In this document: positions 10,987-15,511 of the stretch, piece after piece
How the letters are laid out: each line of letters opens with the position of its first letter
How positions within the stretch are numbered: the stretch's first letter is position 1
NCBI GenBank assembly: GCA_964640195.1
Contig: CAZXIC010000004.1
Coordinates: forward strand, 22,435-86,434
Origin: an uncultured archaeon
GTDB lineage: Archaea; Iainarchaeota; Iainarchaeia; Iainarchaeales; GCA-2688035
Length of the DNA: 64,000 nt
Reading direction: 5' to 3'
The notes under the pieces: generated by a model
Seen by the model: only the letters and a program-made list of their open reading frames with translations
What the model was told of the DNA's origin: nothing
The model's database searches: none
Position numbers and translations under genes: made by a program

Positions 10987-12393
10987 TTAAGGGAGAGTGC
11001 AGTCGCAGGTTATTCCAGCGCCTGATTCAAATTCCAAACACAGCTCGCAGATTTCCGCGTCTGTTAAAACACCATTGTAGATGCGCATGTCATCCACTCT
11101 GCCGCCCCAAAAGCCCTCTTCTCCGTTGCAGCGTGCGCCTATGAGAAAGTTGCCTAAGCTGGTCTCAATCCCAGTGCCTGTTAAAATTTCGAGCTTGCCG
11201 TCCACAAATATGTGAAAATACCGGTAATCGTCCTGGTCACTGTAGTAGGTCATTGCAATGTGATACCATCTCTCTGCAAGCAACGGGCTAACGATGGGGC
11301 CGAGAGCAAGAGGGTAGTCGCAGCCCCAAAACTTGAGGCGGTCACTACCATAATATATGTCCCAGCCGCTGCTATATGGTGAAACGCATGAGCCCTCGTC
11401 GGAGAATGGCGCAGGGGCGTCCCTCCTTGCATAAGGCGGTCCAAACGTGTCGGCGTTTGTATAAATCCATGCCGAGTAAGTGTATGTTCCCCATTCATTG
11501 AAACTGATTGAAGAGTCATCTCCAAAGTCAATGTAATAGTCCGTGTCTGTTCCAGTGTCAGGCCATTCTCCATTATTGACGTTTGTCAGGCTGAACGCTT
11601 GCTCATCAACACCAGTGGCATACGCTGCCCCGCCGTTCGGCCATGTTCCATGATTTGCCCCAACTTCATCCTGCGTGTTCCCGTTTCCTTTCCACCATGC
11701 CACGAGGTATTCCGACAAGCAGTCCGGGTCTTCTATGTCTGGTCTTCCATCGCAGTCGTTGTCTATTCCATCTTTGCAGTTTCCGTTGTCGGTTGATTCA
11801 TCTACGCCGAAGCCCCCGCATGTGCACAAGCAGTCGGCTGAGCAATCGGTTATTGAAGAGTAGTCGCATGTGTCCCTCCCGGCGCAGTAGTAGTCATAGA
11901 GAATAGCCCCTTCGCACCCGTCTAAATCATTGCAGTTTTCGCAAGGTGGAACTGTACCGCATGACGTGTCTGTTCCATCGCATGTTGGTGGGCAGTCCCC
12001 TGGGCAGCTTTCGTATGTTTCTCCTGCGTCGCATGTTCCGTCTCCGCAGCATCCTGCTGGGTCACAGTCTGGGTCTTCTGTTGCTGTGCATCCTGGTGGG
12101 CATGTCCCGTTGCATCCGTCTGGTATGCATTCCGGCTCGCCGTCTGTGTAGCCTCCAAACAGGCAAATGAAGAATTCCTCTGCCGTCTCTGCCTTTGTAA
12201 GCATGTCTTCCTGCGTTGGGACGCATCCGTCAGTGTCAGAGCACGCTTTAAAAGTCGTTTTTAAGTTGCAGATTATGTTCTGGGTTTGGTCTGGTGCTGC
12301 GCCCGCCAGCATTGCTATTACTATTGCGGCAACCAGTATGGCGCCCCCTATTAACAGCAGGTATTCCAAGGCGCCCTGCGCTTTCCGCTTCAT
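10987..12393 (-). CDS. Class III signal (pilin-like) N-terminus + Cys-rich repeats + LamG/concanavalin A-like domain
   Basis: RKA/QGALEYLLLIGGA; CKDGIDNDCDG; LVAWWKGNGNTQD...YTYSAWI...RWYHIAMTY...VDDMRIYNGVLTDAEI. Confidence 0.87.
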   Translation of the reverse strand: MKRKAQGALEYLLLIGGAILVAAIVIAMLAGAAPDQTQNIICNLKTTFKACSDTDGCVPTQEDMLTKAETAEEFFICLFGGYTDGEPECIPDGCNGTCPPGCTATEDPDCDPAGCCGDGTCDAGETYESCPGDCPPTCDGTDTSCGTVPPCENCNDLDGCEGAILYDYYCAGRDTCDYSSITDCSADCLCTCGGFGVDESTDNGNCKDGIDNDCDGRPDIEDPDCLSEYLVAWWKGNGNTQDEVGANHGTWPNGGAAYATGVDEQAFSLTNVNNGEWPDTGTDTDYYIDFGDDSSISFNEWGTYTYSAWIYTNADTFGPPYARRDAPAPFSDEGSCVSPYSSGWDIYYGSDRLKFWGCDYPLALGPIVSPLLAERWYHIAMTYYSDQDDYRYFHIFVDGKLEILTGTGIETSLGNFLIGARCNGEEGFWGGRVDDMRIYNGVLTDAEICELCLEFESGAGITCDCTLP

Positions 12394-12453
12394 CCACTTA
12401 TACTTATCCAGCGAACTACTATATAATTGTTTTTTTGCAGAGAAGGCGTATGA

Positions 12454-12621
12454 TGCGACCGCTGGGATTTGAACCCAGGTTGAGAGCTAGCTCCTAAGAC
12501 TTTCTTGGCTCACCTCCTGAGAGAAAAGCTGAGAAAGCCGGTTCAGAGCATTGGAAGGCTCTAGTGCTTAATGTCTTCTAAGGAACTAGTCCTTTAGAAG
12601 AAACCACTACACTACGGTCGC
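12454..12621 (-). tRNA. tRNA-Gly(TCC) with two introns: D-loop (~12569-12602) and canonical 37/38 (12489-12551)
   Basis: GCGACCG/CGGTCGC acceptor stem, AGAGC/GCTCT anticodon stem, CT-TCC-A|A loop, GGTTCAAATCC T arm; BHB central helix CTTC/GGAG. Confidence 0.92.
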
Positions 12622-13511
12622 ATTAACTCAATGGTCTCCTTGTGCGTAGGCACTTCTCCAGTTTCCCTAAATATTCTATACTTGGTTATGTGTTTTAAAT
12701 TTTTGGGTCTGATTGTTTTGAAGAAAATATCTAGCGGTAGTTGGTTGTAAATATAAACACTTTTTCCTGACGCACTTGCTGAGAATCCGAGGCTTTTCAG
12801 CGAATTTTTTATTTCTTCTAGGAATTTTGGGCTGCAGTTAATATATTCAATGACGCCTGCATTTTCTCTCCTCCTGTGGAAGCTTCCGTCAGTATCAAAC
12901 AGACCTCACAAATAACAACGCAAAAGTTTTTGGTCTTTTAGAATTTCTTTTTGGATTGCCATCCTGTTTTTTCTATCCCCCACAGGGAAATTACATTTCT
13001 CTGATAAAAATTCCTTAAGCTTTTTTGAATAAATCCTACACTTAACCTTGCCCCCGTGTATTAAAATTTTGGGTTGCAATCCGAATAGCCTAATAAATAG
13101 CCCTTGAACGTGCCTGCTTACGTAGTCATAATCAACAATAGCATTGCAACTAACGCTTGTTTCGTTTCCTGTTTCACAAACACACCCATCACCGGCCAGT
13201 ATCCCTAAAAATTCTGCCAAATCTTTGGAGAGGGCGGGCTCATTAATCTGCTTAGGGCCGCAGTTTGGCAGTTCCACGGTTTTAAGGGATTTGTATGCAG
13301 ATATATCTAACCCCGTCTTTTCATGTAGGAGTTGGATTCTTTTAACAGGCATCTTGCTTGATTCCTTCAAATACAGGAAAACCATGCACCTACTTATTTT
13401 CAGCAATCTTGCCATCTTACCCCAGGTAACACCCAACCCGTGTTTCAACTCTCTTAGCAATTCAGCCTGTTTTCCTTTCTCCAAGTCCAAAAAAAGATTT
13501 TTTTCAATCAT
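12612..13511 (-). pseudogene. HTH + double-motif LAGLIDADG endonuclease-like gene with in-frame TGA at 12906-12908; final stop lies inside tRNA-Gly
   Basis: LAEFLGILAGDG and YL*GLFDTDGS motifs; frame stays open to TAG 12612-12614; AT-richer than flanks. Confidence 0.85.
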
Positions 13512-13666
13512 TGTAGTGCTATAATATTAATTTTTTGGCGGTTATAAATACATTGGAAACAGAGCAGGCTTCCGCTGAATTTCAGAGGTGAAAAATTTCC
13601 GGCAAAGGAAATTTCGCCAGTTTTTTTAAATCAGGCTTGTTTAAATAGCTAGAATGGGTAAATTGG

Positions 13667-14305
13667 ATGAAAGGCAAACTGCTCGCAATAGAGGGAAGCG
13701 ATGCTTCAGGCAAGAAAACCCAGGCACTGCTGCTGCTTCAAAGGCTCAGGAGCGAAGGTTACAGGGCAGAGCTGATTTCTTTCCCGCGATACAAGGCATT
13801 CTTCGGCAGGCTGGTCAAGCGCTATCTGAAAGGTGAGATGGGCCCGATCCAAAGGCTGCCGCCTGAGCTGCCCGCGCTGCTTTACGCGCTGGACAGGTTT
13901 GATGCTGCAGAGGCGCTGGGTAAAAAGCTAAAGCAGGGCAGAATAATCGTTGTAGATAGGTTTAGCGCAAGCAACCTTGCTTACCAGGCAGCAAAGCTGC
14001 GGGGGAAAGAGCGCAAGGAATTCATCAAATGGCTCGAGCGCATCGAATCGCGCCTGCCCCAGCCAACCCTCACGGTTTACCTGGACGTTCCAGTCAGCGT
14101 TTCACAGCAGTTGATGCTCCGTGAGAGCAGGAAAAAAGACCTACATGAAAAAAACACCGCTTACCTCAAAGGCGTGCGGCGTGTTTACCTGCTGCTTGCA
14201 AAGCAAGGAAAGTGGAAAAAAATAGACTGCGTGCGCAGGGGAAAGATGCTTCCAAAGGCAGCTATCCACCAAGCGCTGTGGCGCGAAGCCAAAAAATACC
14301 TTTAA
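13667..14305 (+). CDS. tmk: Thymidylate kinase
   Basis: IEGSDASGKKTQ P-loop, LLYALDR, VVDRFSASNLAYQ. Confidence 0.95.
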   Translation: MKGKLLAIEGSDASGKKTQALLLLQRLRSEGYRAELISFPRYKAFFGRLVKRYLKGEMGPIQRLPPELPALLYALDRFDAAEALGKKLKQGRIIVVDRFSASNLAYQAAKLRGKERKEFIKWLERIESRLPQPTLTVYLDVPVSVSQQLMLRESRKKDLHEKNTAYLKGVRRVYLLLAKQGKWKKIDCVRRGKMLPKAAIHQALWREAKKYL

Positions 14306-14339
14306 ATTAGATTTCCCCGCAATATTTCTGGTTTTTAGG

Positions 14340-15287
14340 GTGGATTACAGCAGGGTGCTTTCCTTCTCCTTCAGCTGGCTTAAGGAGAAAAAGGCAGTCA
14401 AATACCTTGCACTGGGCTGGGCTGCTGCCTTAGCACTTATCTTGCTTCTTGCTGCCCTTGCATTGCTTCTTTTCAGGGAAACAATCACCAGCTTGCTTGC
14501 CGGCTCATTTTCAACCCTGGCAGGGCTTTTGCTTGAACCCTCGCTGGTTGAGCAAATGGTTGCAGTGTTTCTCGCTGCAGCAATTCCGCTATTCGCCCTT
14601 TTTGCCCTAGGGCTCCTATACATTCATGCATTAATGGTTCTGGCTGCCTTGAGGAAAGCAGGTCTGCCTGCAGCAGAGCTTTCCCCAATCAGGTTCATTA
14701 AATTGGTTGCTTCGTGCATTGAAAGCACTGCCCTTGCTGTCTTCTCAGCCTTTAACAAGAAGTACCTTGCGCTGCTGCTTGCCGCACTTGTTTTCGCTGC
14801 AGCAACATTCGTTCCAGACGATTTTGCAAGCATTGCAAGCGGATTGCTCGCTTTGCTGCTGCTTTCCCTCTACTCGCCTGTTGTCTTTTACAACGCAGTT
14901 AGGCAAAGCCACGCCCCTGTTATTTTTCTCTCCAAAGGTGTTTCAGTAGCCGCTGCCCTGAAAGCAAGCTGGTTTTTCACTGAAAAGAGGTTCTGGAGCA
15001 TAGTTGCAGCCTGGCTTGCCTTGTTTCTTGTTTCCTTGGCCTTGTTTGCACTGGCTTTTTTTGCCATTTCCCTTGCCCTAACAGCATTGTTCTTTTACCT
15101 TCTTTCCCTGTTTTCCCTGGCCTTCCAGATAGCATCCTTACTGACAGCCTTGGTTCTCCTTCCCTTTGCCTTGCTGGTTCTCTCATATGCAAAAGCAGCA
15201 GTCTACCGCGAATGCTTGGATGAAATGGAAGCAGAGAGGCTGCCTGCAGAAGCAGTTGCAGCAGCGGGAAAAACGAAAAAAGGTTGA
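14340..15287 (+). CDS. Polytopic membrane protein, unknown function
   Basis: Several long hydrophobic segments; AALKASWFFTEKRFWSI. Confidence 0.75.
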   Translation: MDYSRVLSFSFSWLKEKKAVKYLALGWAAALALILLLAALALLLFRETITSLLAGSFSTLAGLLLEPSLVEQMVAVFLAAAIPLFALFALGLLYIHALMVLAALRKAGLPAAELSPIRFIKLVASCIESTALAVFSAFNKKYLALLLAALVFAAATFVPDDFASIASGLLALLLLSLYSPVVFYNAVRQSHAPVIFLSKGVSVAAALKASWFFTEKRFWSIVAAWLALFLVSLALFALAFFAISLALTALFFYLLSLFSLAFQIASLLTALVLLPFALLVLSYAKAAVYRECLDEMEAERLPAEAVAAAGKTKKG

Positions 15288-15298
15288 ATCGAAATGAT

Positions 15299-15511
15299 TG
15301 CGGATGCCGGGGGTCGAACCCGGGTCACGACCTGATTGCAGCAACCTTTAAATCTGTTTTTTGGAAAAAAGGCTTTTGCGAAGCACTTTTTCCCCAGGCT
15401 TTTTTCCCACAGGAAAAAAAGGCTTTTGCGAAGCACTTTTTCCCCAGGCTTTTTTCCCACAGGAAAAAAGGCTGTGGCAAGGTCGGATCCTAACCACTAG
15501 ACTACATCCGC
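15299..15511 (-). tRNA. tRNA-Gly(GCC) with 141-nt intron at 37/38 (15334-15474)
   Basis: GCGGATG/CATCCGC, CGACC/GGTCG, TT-GCC-A|A, GGTTCGACCCC; clean BHB (TTGC/GCAA, AGC/GCT). Confidence 0.93.
15363..15473. repeat. 50-bp tandem repeat (~2.2 copies) inside the tRNA intron
   Basis: 15371-15420 and 15421-15469 identical except one A in a homopolymer. Confidence 0.95.

Follow-up and report, generated by a model that had tools for sequence, protein, structure and literature searches.

Free-standing homing endonucleases, LAGLIDADG enzymes encoded in the bulge-helix-bulge introns of archaeal rRNA genes, collaborative homing and integrase elements that target tRNA genes are all known already. The seg and mob genes of T4-type phages are free-standing endonucleases with intronless homing. 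A general description of intronless homing is given in PMC6083498, which also sets out collaborative homing in the cyanophage psbA gene, where the free-standing endonuclease F-CphI is found beside a group I intron devoid of an open reading frame (ORF), the intron being proposed to block self-cleavage and the nuclease to move the intron (Zeng, Bonocora and Shub 2009, in PMC6083498). Here we analyse a 64,000-nucleotide stretch of contig CAZXIC010000004.1 (hereafter the window) from an uncultured archaeon of the Iainarchaeales, in which a gene for a protein with a helix-turn-helix (HTH) and LAGLIDADG motifs, at 12612-13511 on the minus strand, ends inside a tRNA-Gly(UCC) gene. We consider it probable that this gene is a recently inactivated free-standing homing endonuclease, belonging to a large family of genes that lie flush with tRNA genes and would spread by homing; an intron in the D loop of the adjoining tRNA may split its recognition site. 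The family of tRNA-gene-lodged homing endonucleases is widespread and apparently undescribed; a literature search in which subscription journals were little covered found no paper on LAGLIDADG genes flush with tRNA genes or on a link to D-loop introns.

Mobile elements and tRNA introns have been connected before. Introns have been proposed to protect tRNA genes from integrating elements (Randau and Soll 2008, as cited in PMC4090602), and the gain of an intron together with a stray 5′ tRNA fragment has been linked to a recombinase-bearing element (Sugahara et al. 2012, PMC3293823). In a 2026 preprint on Asgard archaea (10.64898/2026.10.13.758758) several routes by which tRNA introns reach new positions are tested, with the conclusion that the route remains open.

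The best solved free-standing matches to the present family, by profile and by Foldseek, are I-DmoI and I-Tsp061I, which have the same fold and motif arrangement (template modelling score normalised to the target 0.66-0.73) and are likewise archaeal and tied to bulge-helix-bulge introns. These two are encoded within an rRNA-gene intron, whereas the present family lies outside the RNA gene, flush with the tRNA end, and has in addition an N-terminal HTH of about 90 residues, its own conserved putative promoter and a stop codon borrowed from the tRNA. With F-CphI it shares the position of a free-standing endonuclease gene adjoining a gene with an ORF-less intron. The F-CphI system, however, belongs to a phage and pairs an Endo VII-type nuclease with a group I ribozyme intron in a protein gene, and the present one involves cellular archaea, a bulge-helix-bulge intron spliced by proteins, a LAGLIDADG nuclease and tRNA genes; many of its copies are moreover intronless and its introns are unrelated in sequence.

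The likeness to intronless homing of the T4 type is that of an optional gene between conserved genes, presumed to cut its neighbour where absent and polymorphic in presence and absence. It differs in that the neighbour is a tRNA gene which the ORF overlaps, in that the cassette takes the site of the tRNA's TATA box, and in its occurrence in cellular genomes of both archaea and bacteria. As in the integrase elements there are tRNA landing sites, partial tRNA copies (at the loci L049 and L008) and intron gain tied to a mobile element, but no integrase or recombinase is present, the element consists of one endonuclease gene, about 1 kb long, and no duplicated tRNA fragment accompanies its main class. 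Lastly, WhiA is a bacterial transcription factor with a degenerate double-LAGLIDADG fold and a C-terminal HTH, and is without the catalytic acids. It also appears among the Foldseek matches and likewise combines a LAGLIDADG core with an HTH, but in the present family the HTH is N-terminal and the acids are invariant.

The locus and its reading frame

The host archaeon (G000 in our numbering) is represented by a 1.19-Mb draft genome, 88% complete, and its closest named public relatives carry the label Candidatus Iainarchaeum. On the minus strand of the window, 13511-12612 translates with table 11 into 299 residues and a final stop, with a single internal stop. From the start codon ATG at 13511-13509, 201 codons run to an in-frame TGA at codon 202 (12906-12908), where a program-listed ORF of 201 amino acids (aa) ends; 97 more codons then follow in frame to ATG CGA CCG TAG, with the TAG at 12614-12612. 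The sequence-only reading that preceded this analysis had described a 299-codon frame with this ending, read through one TGA and sharing its last 10 nucleotides (nt) with the tRNA, and the translation bears it out. G1 of the tRNA is at 12621, and the end of the frame coincides with the tRNA over its positions 1-10, the TAG being positions 8-10, with zero spacer between the endonuclease ORF and tRNA-Gly(UCC).

This tRNA is absent from the default ARAGORN output, and ARAGORN -i miscalls it as Phe(aaa). A cloverleaf parse, with the T arm and the acceptor stem of 7 base pairs (bp) as anchors, gives Gly(UCC) with two inserts, one of 34 nt within the D loop and one of 63 nt at 37/38, and with both inserts removed in silico ARAGORN calls a 71-nt tRNA-Gly(tcc). 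The precursor of 168 nt with its two introns thereby occupies 12454-12621 on the minus strand. Exon 1 (positions 1-20, 12603-12621) contains the 10 nt shared with the endonuclease frame; the D-loop intron, with a boundary certain to +/-1 nt, lies between positions 20 and 21 (12569-12602); exon 2 (12552-12568) runs from position 21 to 37 and carries the anticodon TCC; the canonical 37/38 intron of the anticodon loop fills 12489-12551, as parsed from its fold, and exon 3 (12454-12488) extends from position 38 to the discriminator A. An Rfam scan of 11000-15000, at E up to 1, returned neither a tRNA nor a group I intron.

The protein family and the nonsense codon

The frame is more than chance, since Pfam LAGLIDADG_3 matches the read-through protein (E 2.2e-9), an intact ortholog with 61% identity is found in the genome G016 and dozens of further homologs exist. 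Two LAGLIDADG helices were found, each ending in a conserved acidic residue. The first (LAEFLGILAGDG, residues 98-109) is at 13185-13220 and the second (YL*GLFDTDGSF, residues 200-211) at 12879-12914, both on the minus strand, and in the window copy the second is interrupted by the TGA and lies behind it. In the family alignment none of the 14 members departs from G-D-G and D-T-D-G. Against solved structures the family profile matches VMA-intein endonucleases (E 8e-14) and I-DmoI (E 1e-4 to 1e-6). An AlphaFold 2 model of the 61% ortholog, and not of the window protein itself, has a mean predicted local distance difference test (pLDDT) score of 92.2; it shows a helical N-terminal domain and two pseudo-symmetric alpha-beta-beta-alpha-beta-beta-alpha domains, and its top Foldseek matches are I-Tsp061I, I-DmoI and intein endonucleases (E 2e-9 to 1e-6), with WhiA lower. 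Residues 12-61 of the ortholog are hit by HTH_3 and further HTH models at scores under the cut-offs of these models, and HTH_3 matches 3 of the 14 members with a best E of 3e-6. Together with the model these place the N-terminal HTH domain at about residues 12-61 (13329-13478, minus strand). The name HTH-LAGLIDADG proposed for this gene from the sequence alone is fair, and judged by alignment and model the protein is an N-terminal HTH joined to an I-DmoI-type double-LAGLIDADG core.

At the position of the TGA an Arg is found in 8 of 8 aligned homologs (YLRGLFDTDG). Recoding of TGA was discarded as an explanation, since TGA is the commonest stop in this genome, ending 372 of 961 long ORFs, and the homologs all have Arg. 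Assembly error was likewise discarded: a separate assembly of the public DNA run X1, which may come from the same sample, covers 12559-13700 with 0 differences, TGA included, so the codon is truly in the DNA. The window copy is most likely a pseudogene, in which a CGA-type Arg codon appears to have become TGA before the second catalytic motif, and the full enzyme would no longer be made. The remainder of the frame is intact, which suggests that the inactivation is recent. What had been read as an endonuclease gene is therefore one by family, but this copy is most likely dead through a nonsense codon at a conserved Arg.

Association with tRNA genes across genomes

Homologs were surveyed in two sets. 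Set 1 comprised 61 genomes (60 related ones and this one) with 86 matches in 43 of the 61; the 74 matches examined exclude 12 whose long frames (569-1316 aa) probably represent inteins or fusions. Set 2 comprised the best 80 of 568 relatives, one genome per species, 2 of the 80 being already in set 1. By windows placed at the 3′ end of each ORF, 59 of the 74 free-standing set-1 homologs end in or beside a tRNA gene, as do 65 of the 80 in set 2, bacteria included. In the control, 15 of the 961 ORFs of at least 200 aa in this genome fall within the same windows, and two of these are endonucleases, leaving 13 of 959 others. The layout of endonuclease and tRNA is not chance. The remaining tRNA-touching ORFs of this genome (HisRS, TtcA-like, HerA-like and others) were set aside as ordinary genes.

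Several geometries make up the association. In set 1, 29 of the 74 ORFs enter the 5′ end of a same-strand tRNA, most commonly at offsets of -10 and -15, which makes U8-A9-G10 or U13-A14-G15 the stop; in 14 a tRNA follows after 1-80 nt, 16 enter a tRNA 3′ end in antisense, 7 have an upstream tRNA only, and 8 are without a tRNA by the automatic rule. Among these 8, inspection by eye shows a tRNA at L008, L052 and L066, and L038 reaches the end of its contig. In set 2, 38 ORFs overlap the tRNA, 20 have it downstream, 7 are antisense to it, 1 has an upstream tRNA only and 14 have none. Homologs are thus overwhelmingly tRNA-adjacent, with stops very often inside the tRNA, which supports the earlier reading. 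The more specific proposal that tRNA 5′ ends are the target does not cover the whole family, in which entire clades lie antisense at the 3′ end or behind the tRNA with a duplicated 3′ fragment. The two-member clade of L056 and L068, also among the 8 without a tRNA, adjoins the start of a gene for a thiolase-like protein and not a tRNA.

Three copies were found in this genome, all running into tRNAs, and a tblastn search with 75 family proteins revealed no further copies or relics in it beyond the three loci. The paralog on contig 8 is intact (343 aa), its TAG being positions 13-15 of tRNA-Glu(CUC), and the third, divergent copy (C1:76519-77484, plus strand, 321 aa) reads 48 nt into tRNA-Leu(UAG).

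A quick maximum-likelihood tree of 75 proteins, with support from the Shimodaira-Hasegawa-like approximate likelihood ratio test (SH-aLRT), has clades that follow the tRNA touched: Ala CGC; Glu CUC; Val GAC with Val CAC; Gly UCC/GCC/CCC; Pro GGG; Leu CAG; Leu UAG/UAA; Gln CUG; Thr CGU with Thr GGU/UGU; Arg GCG; His GUG; and Arg UCG. These tRNA-specific clades cut across the families of the order, and on the evidence of the tree each endonuclease clade is tied to one tRNA species. Geometry varies within the Gly clade, in which the UCC and CCC copies are 5′ sense and the GCC copies 3′ antisense. Both arrangements may place the 3′ end of the ORF against the acceptor-stem word, which would be identical at either tRNA end when read inward.

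The archaeal genomes of set 2 are labelled Iainarchaeum, Woesearchaeota, Pacearchaeota, Nanoarchaeota, Nanohaloarchaea, ARMAN-5, Aenigmatarchaeota and Hadarchaeota, and the bacterial ones Moran-, Colwell-, Lipton- and Magasanikbacteria, Omnitrophota, Nitrospira, Elusimicrobia and Chloroflexota. Thirteen bacterial members (L144, L150, L156, L161, L163, L173, L175, L176, L179, L181, L184, L187 and L190) lie directly upstream of an intronless tRNA-Ser at offsets of -38 to +79, in genomes labelled candidate-phyla-radiation, Omnitrophota, Nitrospira (one complete chromosome), Nitrospirae and Elusimicrobia, and the Chloroflexota-labelled L167 sits on tRNA-Val(GAC).

Other layouts deserve separate description. 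Antisense clades occupy the 3′ ends of tRNA-Thr(GGU/UGU) or tRNA-Gly(GCC) (L028, L030, L035, L039, L044, L045, L050, L054, L055, L057, L059 and L070; L004 and L006); at some of these loci the entire tRNA is within the 3′ extension of the ORF. The tRNA-Val(CAC) and tRNA-Thr(CGU) clades (L015, L033, L036, L049, L021, L024 and L041) sit downstream of an intact same-strand tRNA, and in 4 of these 7 (L015, L033, L036 and L049) a stray fragment of T arm and 3′ acceptor follows directly after the ORF. The fragment of L049 has 27 nt identical to the resident tRNA and a different acceptor strand. This layout looks like insertion into a tRNA whose 3′ part was replaced. At L008 a 5′ tRNA fragment and a T-run are found upstream of the endonuclease gene (L008:1308-1345), and a full intron-bearing tRNA with the same first 14 nt lies 50 nt downstream (L008:2460-2586). 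ARAGORN reads the two together as one tRNA-Gln interrupted by a 1186-nt intron, which was not accepted as a real intron, and neither was a tRNA-Arg with a 904-nt intron on C2. In the overlap class, local alignment against shuffles and self-BLAST detected no displaced 5′ tRNA fragment upstream of the gene, the exceptions to the missing upstream fragment being L008, L037, L049 and L065, of which L008 fell below the score cut-off and was seen separately.

D-loop introns and their link to the endonuclease gene

The insert in the D loop of the window tRNA folds with a central helix of 4 bp (AGTG/CATT) and an inner helix of 8 bp, with a bulge of 3 nt at the 5′ joint and of 2 nt at the 3′ joint (3 if the mature D loop has 6 nt). 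The 37/38 insert has the central helix CTTC/GGAG and the 5-bp anticodon stem as outer helix. The inserts accord with the bulge-helix-bulge form, in which a 4-bp helix separates two 3-nt bulges at the exon-intron joints, and an EndA gene is present as a 170-aa frame. A motif of this kind (3-4-3 or 3-4-2), located at one constant place immediately before A21, is formed by 12 of the 13 D-loop inserts of set 1 and this genome, against 24 of 650 shuffled controls, and by 11 of 14 in set 2. From its sequence and predicted fold the D-loop insert of the window is a bulge-helix-bulge intron at 20/21. The arrangement is hence one of a nuclease gene beside an ORF-less intron of 34 nt, which starts 19 nt into the overlapped tRNA. 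In intron-bearing tRNA-Glu genes the stems differ between genomes and still pair, suggesting that these genes are in use.

The distribution of D-loop introns was then compared between tRNAs, counting only those detected by the finder and giving no P value across related genomes. With the ORF on the 5′ side of the tRNA, set 1 has D-loop introns in 12 of 25 overlapped and 0 of 9 downstream tRNAs (the former being 11 of 24 plus L046_47, first filed as a bystander at -133), compared with 0/14 other, 0/12 antisense and 0/9 upstream tRNAs. The archaea of set 2 have 8/27 overlapped and 4/9 downstream, and 0/5 antisense and 2/26 other, the last two both being tRNA-Gly(GCC) about 200 nt upstream of the endonuclease gene; the bacteria have 0/14 with the ORF on the 5′ side and 0/9 other. 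In this genome 2 of the 3 tRNAs with an endonuclease ORF have such an intron, as do 2 of 32 others (Val GAC and Lys UUU). For gene on the 5′ side versus others the counts are 12/34 versus 0/35 in set 1 and 12/36 versus 2/31 in set 2, giving 24/70 versus 2/66 other tRNAs in the same archaeal loci. The enrichment is real and the link is a statistical one.

The intron-bearing cases are spread over six or more types of tRNA (Gly UCC, Glu CUC, Val GAC/UAC, Arg GCG and Gln CUG/UUG). All 8 of 8 tRNA-Glu(CUC) genes without an endonuclease were intronless, in a search whose intronless query is biased against intron-bearing alleles. The survey bears out that D-loop introns are far commoner with endonuclease genes than with other tRNAs. 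As to the suggestion that endonuclease and intron spread together, the co-occurrence stands, but the intron is not obligatory and its sequences are unrelated between tRNA types; these unrelated sequences would fit repeated local gains at least as well as joint spread.

Promoter and transcription

Upstream of the endonuclease gene a TATA box (TATTTATAA) was read directly at 13550-13542 on the minus strand, where one had been suggested. It precedes the ATG by about 30 nt, a spacing that resembles the tRNA promoters of this genome and implies, from sequence, a near-leaderless mRNA. Directly upstream of it lies the promoter-proximal motif TTCAGCGGAAGCCTGCTCT (13561-13579, minus strand), detected across homologs by regular expression and nhmmer profile: the strict expression for TTCAGCGGAAGCCTGCTCT is found upstream of 15 of 74 homologs, and the profile of motif and TATA upstream of 34 of 74. 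On the whole 1.19-Mb genome that profile finds three endonuclease promoters only, the divergent copy on C1 carrying the same motif at C1:76452-76492. The cassette thus appears to bring its own conserved putative promoter.

Ordinary tRNA genes of this genome have their TATA at about -36..-28, and a TATA-like hexamer is found at -42..-24 in 19 of 32 of them. Such a hexamer is present in 23 of 26 tRNAs downstream of an endonuclease stop but in only 19 of 61 overlapped tRNAs, despite the A+T-rich context, and in the Arg(UCG) clade the stop TAA is inside the TATA of the downstream tRNA. At the window locus there is, as had been remarked, no room for a tRNA promoter between the genes: the spacer is zero, and the -42..-24 region is G+C-rich and without a TATA-like hexamer. 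An RNase P RNA gene is present in the genome (95.8 bits against a cut-off of 84). Co-transcription followed by release of the tRNA by RNase P is plausible from this arrangement, and by geometry alone, a cut at +1 would leave the mRNA without its stop codon; in the sequence-only reading such a non-stop mRNA would make expression self-limiting. The cassette has no stop of its own, and translation would be ended by the first in-frame stop made by universal tRNA nucleotides, these being U8-A9-G10 at the window locus and U13-A14-G15 at the contig 8 paralog.

Empty alleles and mobility

Divergent from the endonuclease gene and adjoining it lies tmk (thymidylate kinase, 13667-14305), which is the divergent neighbour of endonuclease and tRNA-Gly(UCC) both here and in G016, a genome of another genus. 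In five genomes of the latter genus (G020, G021, G004, G018 and G013) the tmk/tRNA-Gly(UCC) locus is without the endonuclease gene and has a conserved spacer of 57-79 nt with a TATA (TTATTTAAAT) at about -34..-25. The gene is therefore optional at one conserved locus, and the comparison of empty alleles that had been called for is consistent with homing. The spacer of the empty alleles is not recognisably kept in the endonuclease alleles of the window or of G016, as judged by weak alignment. The cassette, about 1 kb long, begins close to the start of tmk, ends at position 1 of the tRNA and occupies the place that the tRNA's own TATA has in empty alleles. In three of the genomes with empty alleles (G004, G018 and G013; loci L073-L075, L077 and L078) there are 1.2-2.2 kb extra directly after tRNA-Gly(UCC) in comparison with G016, G020 and G021.

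Between this genome and G016 the endonucleases are 61% and the tmk products 54% identical. In the Arg(UCG) clade, identity between genera is 65-80% for the endonucleases and 43-71% for the few flanking proteins that are shared, and most flanks are unshared. The number of matches per genome varies from 0 to 6.

Other features near the locus

The other neighbour of the locus is a gene for a class-III-signal-peptide protein. A match to the c-di-GMP-I-GGC riboswitch over the tmk start (13664-13741, plus strand), the single hit of the Rfam scan, scores 27.1 bits against a gathering threshold of 59 and was rejected as probably chance. A tRNA-Gly(GCC) at 15299-15511 on the minus strand, 1.8 kb from the endonuclease locus and without an adjoining endonuclease gene, has an insert in its anticodon loop of 119 nt (ARAGORN -i) or 141 nt (parse).

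Discussion

The reading that we favour, and hold to be probable, is that of a tRNA-flush homing endonuclease whose recognition site would be split by the D-loop intron. The gene would spread in that its enzyme cuts tRNA alleles without it and the repair of the cut copies the gene into them, and the tRNA would be transcribed from the endonuclease promoter as one transcript and then freed by RNase P. For this LAGLIDADG fold the recognition site is about 22 bp, and enzymes of the monomeric two-motif type make site-specific double-strand cuts with 4-nt 3′ overhangs. If such a site, with the HTH in addition, spans the position, an intron at a constant distance of about 20 bp from the end of the ORF is to be expected, and the 20/21 intron, some 20 bp into the tRNA, would be linked to the endonuclease because it splits that site. 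This may have come about in two ways. The intron could protect the resident allele and be co-converted with the gene, as in collaborative homing, or a spliceable insertion could be a resistance allele that arose or was selected at the cut site. The second version, or many independent events, is favoured because the introns are unrelated and because intron-free endonuclease alleles exist, the closest ortholog among them.

Several observations weigh against this reading. Between tRNA types the identity of intron sequences is near the shuffled level, which speaks against one co-mobile intron. The G016 ortholog and other Gly(UCC)-linked copies are without a D-loop intron, and so are 13 of the 25 overlapped tRNAs of set 1 and 14 of 14 endonuclease-flanked tRNAs in bacteria. 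Conversely, D-loop introns occur without the gene in this genome, in tRNA-Val(GAC) (C3:46692-46796, minus strand) and tRNA-Lys(UUU) (C32:3775-3935, plus strand), both with their own TATA and the intron at the same place, and tblastn with the 75 family proteins found no endonuclease gene or relic upstream of either. Inside the ORF, 47-59 nt before the tRNA, a TATA-like run (TATAGAATATTTA) is conserved in the ortholog and could be an internal tRNA promoter with a leader of about 25 nt. Vertical descent with losses is possible, since the identity of the endonucleases is about that of tmk. It must also be noted that the sampled genomes are related and not independent, and that the tRNA finder works only where the T arm is canonical and the acceptor stem has 7 bp, and detects only inserts in the D loop and the anticodon loop.

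Other explanations were weighed. The proteins might be domesticated, vertically inherited regulators of the WhiA kind, acting on the neighbouring tRNA promoter, with adjacency reflecting an operon and not a homing footprint. Foldseek does match WhiA in RNA polymerase complexes, LAGLIDADG_WhiA weakly matches 5 of 14 members, the HTH could have its operator in the conserved motif at the promoter, the family is present in 43 of the 61 related genomes, and the Arg(UCG)-linked proteins are better conserved between genera (65-80%) than the shared flanks (43-71%). WhiA, however, has lost its catalytic motifs, and here both are invariant in all 14 members. A copy number of 0 to 6 matches per genome, a locus occupied in one and empty in five genomes of a single genus, and nonsense-mutated copies such as that of the window are also difficult to reconcile with a domesticated regulator, and the use of both tRNA ends and both strands, with duplicated tRNA fragments, looks like insertion; we regard this explanation as improbable.

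It is rather more doubtful still that an ordinary free-standing endonuclease gene was packed by chance against a tRNA with an internal promoter, the overlap being inconsequential and the intron unrelated. The genome is small with short spacers, the TATA-like run 47-59 nt before the tRNA would serve, and introns without gene and gene without introns are both seen, but adjacency in 59/74 and 65/80 homologs against 13/959 controls, the strict mapping of clade to tRNA, the D-loop introns in 24/70 against 2/66 and the depletion of TATA-like hexamers in overlapped tRNAs (19/61 versus 19/32 and 23/26) all speak against it. We give very little credence, finally, to the idea that the gene was once encoded within a bulge-helix-bulge tRNA intron and was displaced to the flank, leaving an ORF-less intron behind. 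That the closest solved relatives are encoded in such introns of archaeal rRNA genes would agree with it, as would the relatives lying between tRNA parts, with a 5′ fragment upstream (L008) or a 3′ fragment downstream (L015, L033, L036 and L049). Yet the overlap class is without a displaced 5′ fragment upstream (with L008, below the cut-off, seen separately), the acceptor stem downstream of the ORF is complete at the window locus, and bacterial members, which are unable to splice such introns, share the flanking layout.

The homing reading offers an unusual layout, a selfish gene at the TATA site of a tRNA which probably takes over the transcription of that tRNA, in a family that is widespread in small-genome archaea and also found in several bacterial phyla. 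Its members are putative natural nucleases specific for tRNA genes and may interest meganuclease engineers. The interest lies in the pattern at the level of the family and in its tie to the 20/21 introns, by which one class of introns at an odd position, the D loop, is statistically tied to one class of mobile gene with testable enzymology.

A further-reaching idea, which we put forward tentatively and think possible without holding it likely, is that LAGLIDADG endonucleases flanking tRNA genes are behind the acquisition of non-canonical tRNA introns in archaea. Cognate tRNA genes would be cut by these enzymes around 20/21; insertions that fold as a bulge-helix-bulge would be harmless through splicing and would make the allele immune, and would thus be fixed repeatedly at the same place in different tRNAs and lineages, with the same nuclease family parasitising bacterial tRNA-Ser genes in intronless form. 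If true, this would provide a concrete route for the arrival of archaeal tRNA introns and would directly back the long-standing proposal that tRNA genes are guarded by introns against mobile elements.

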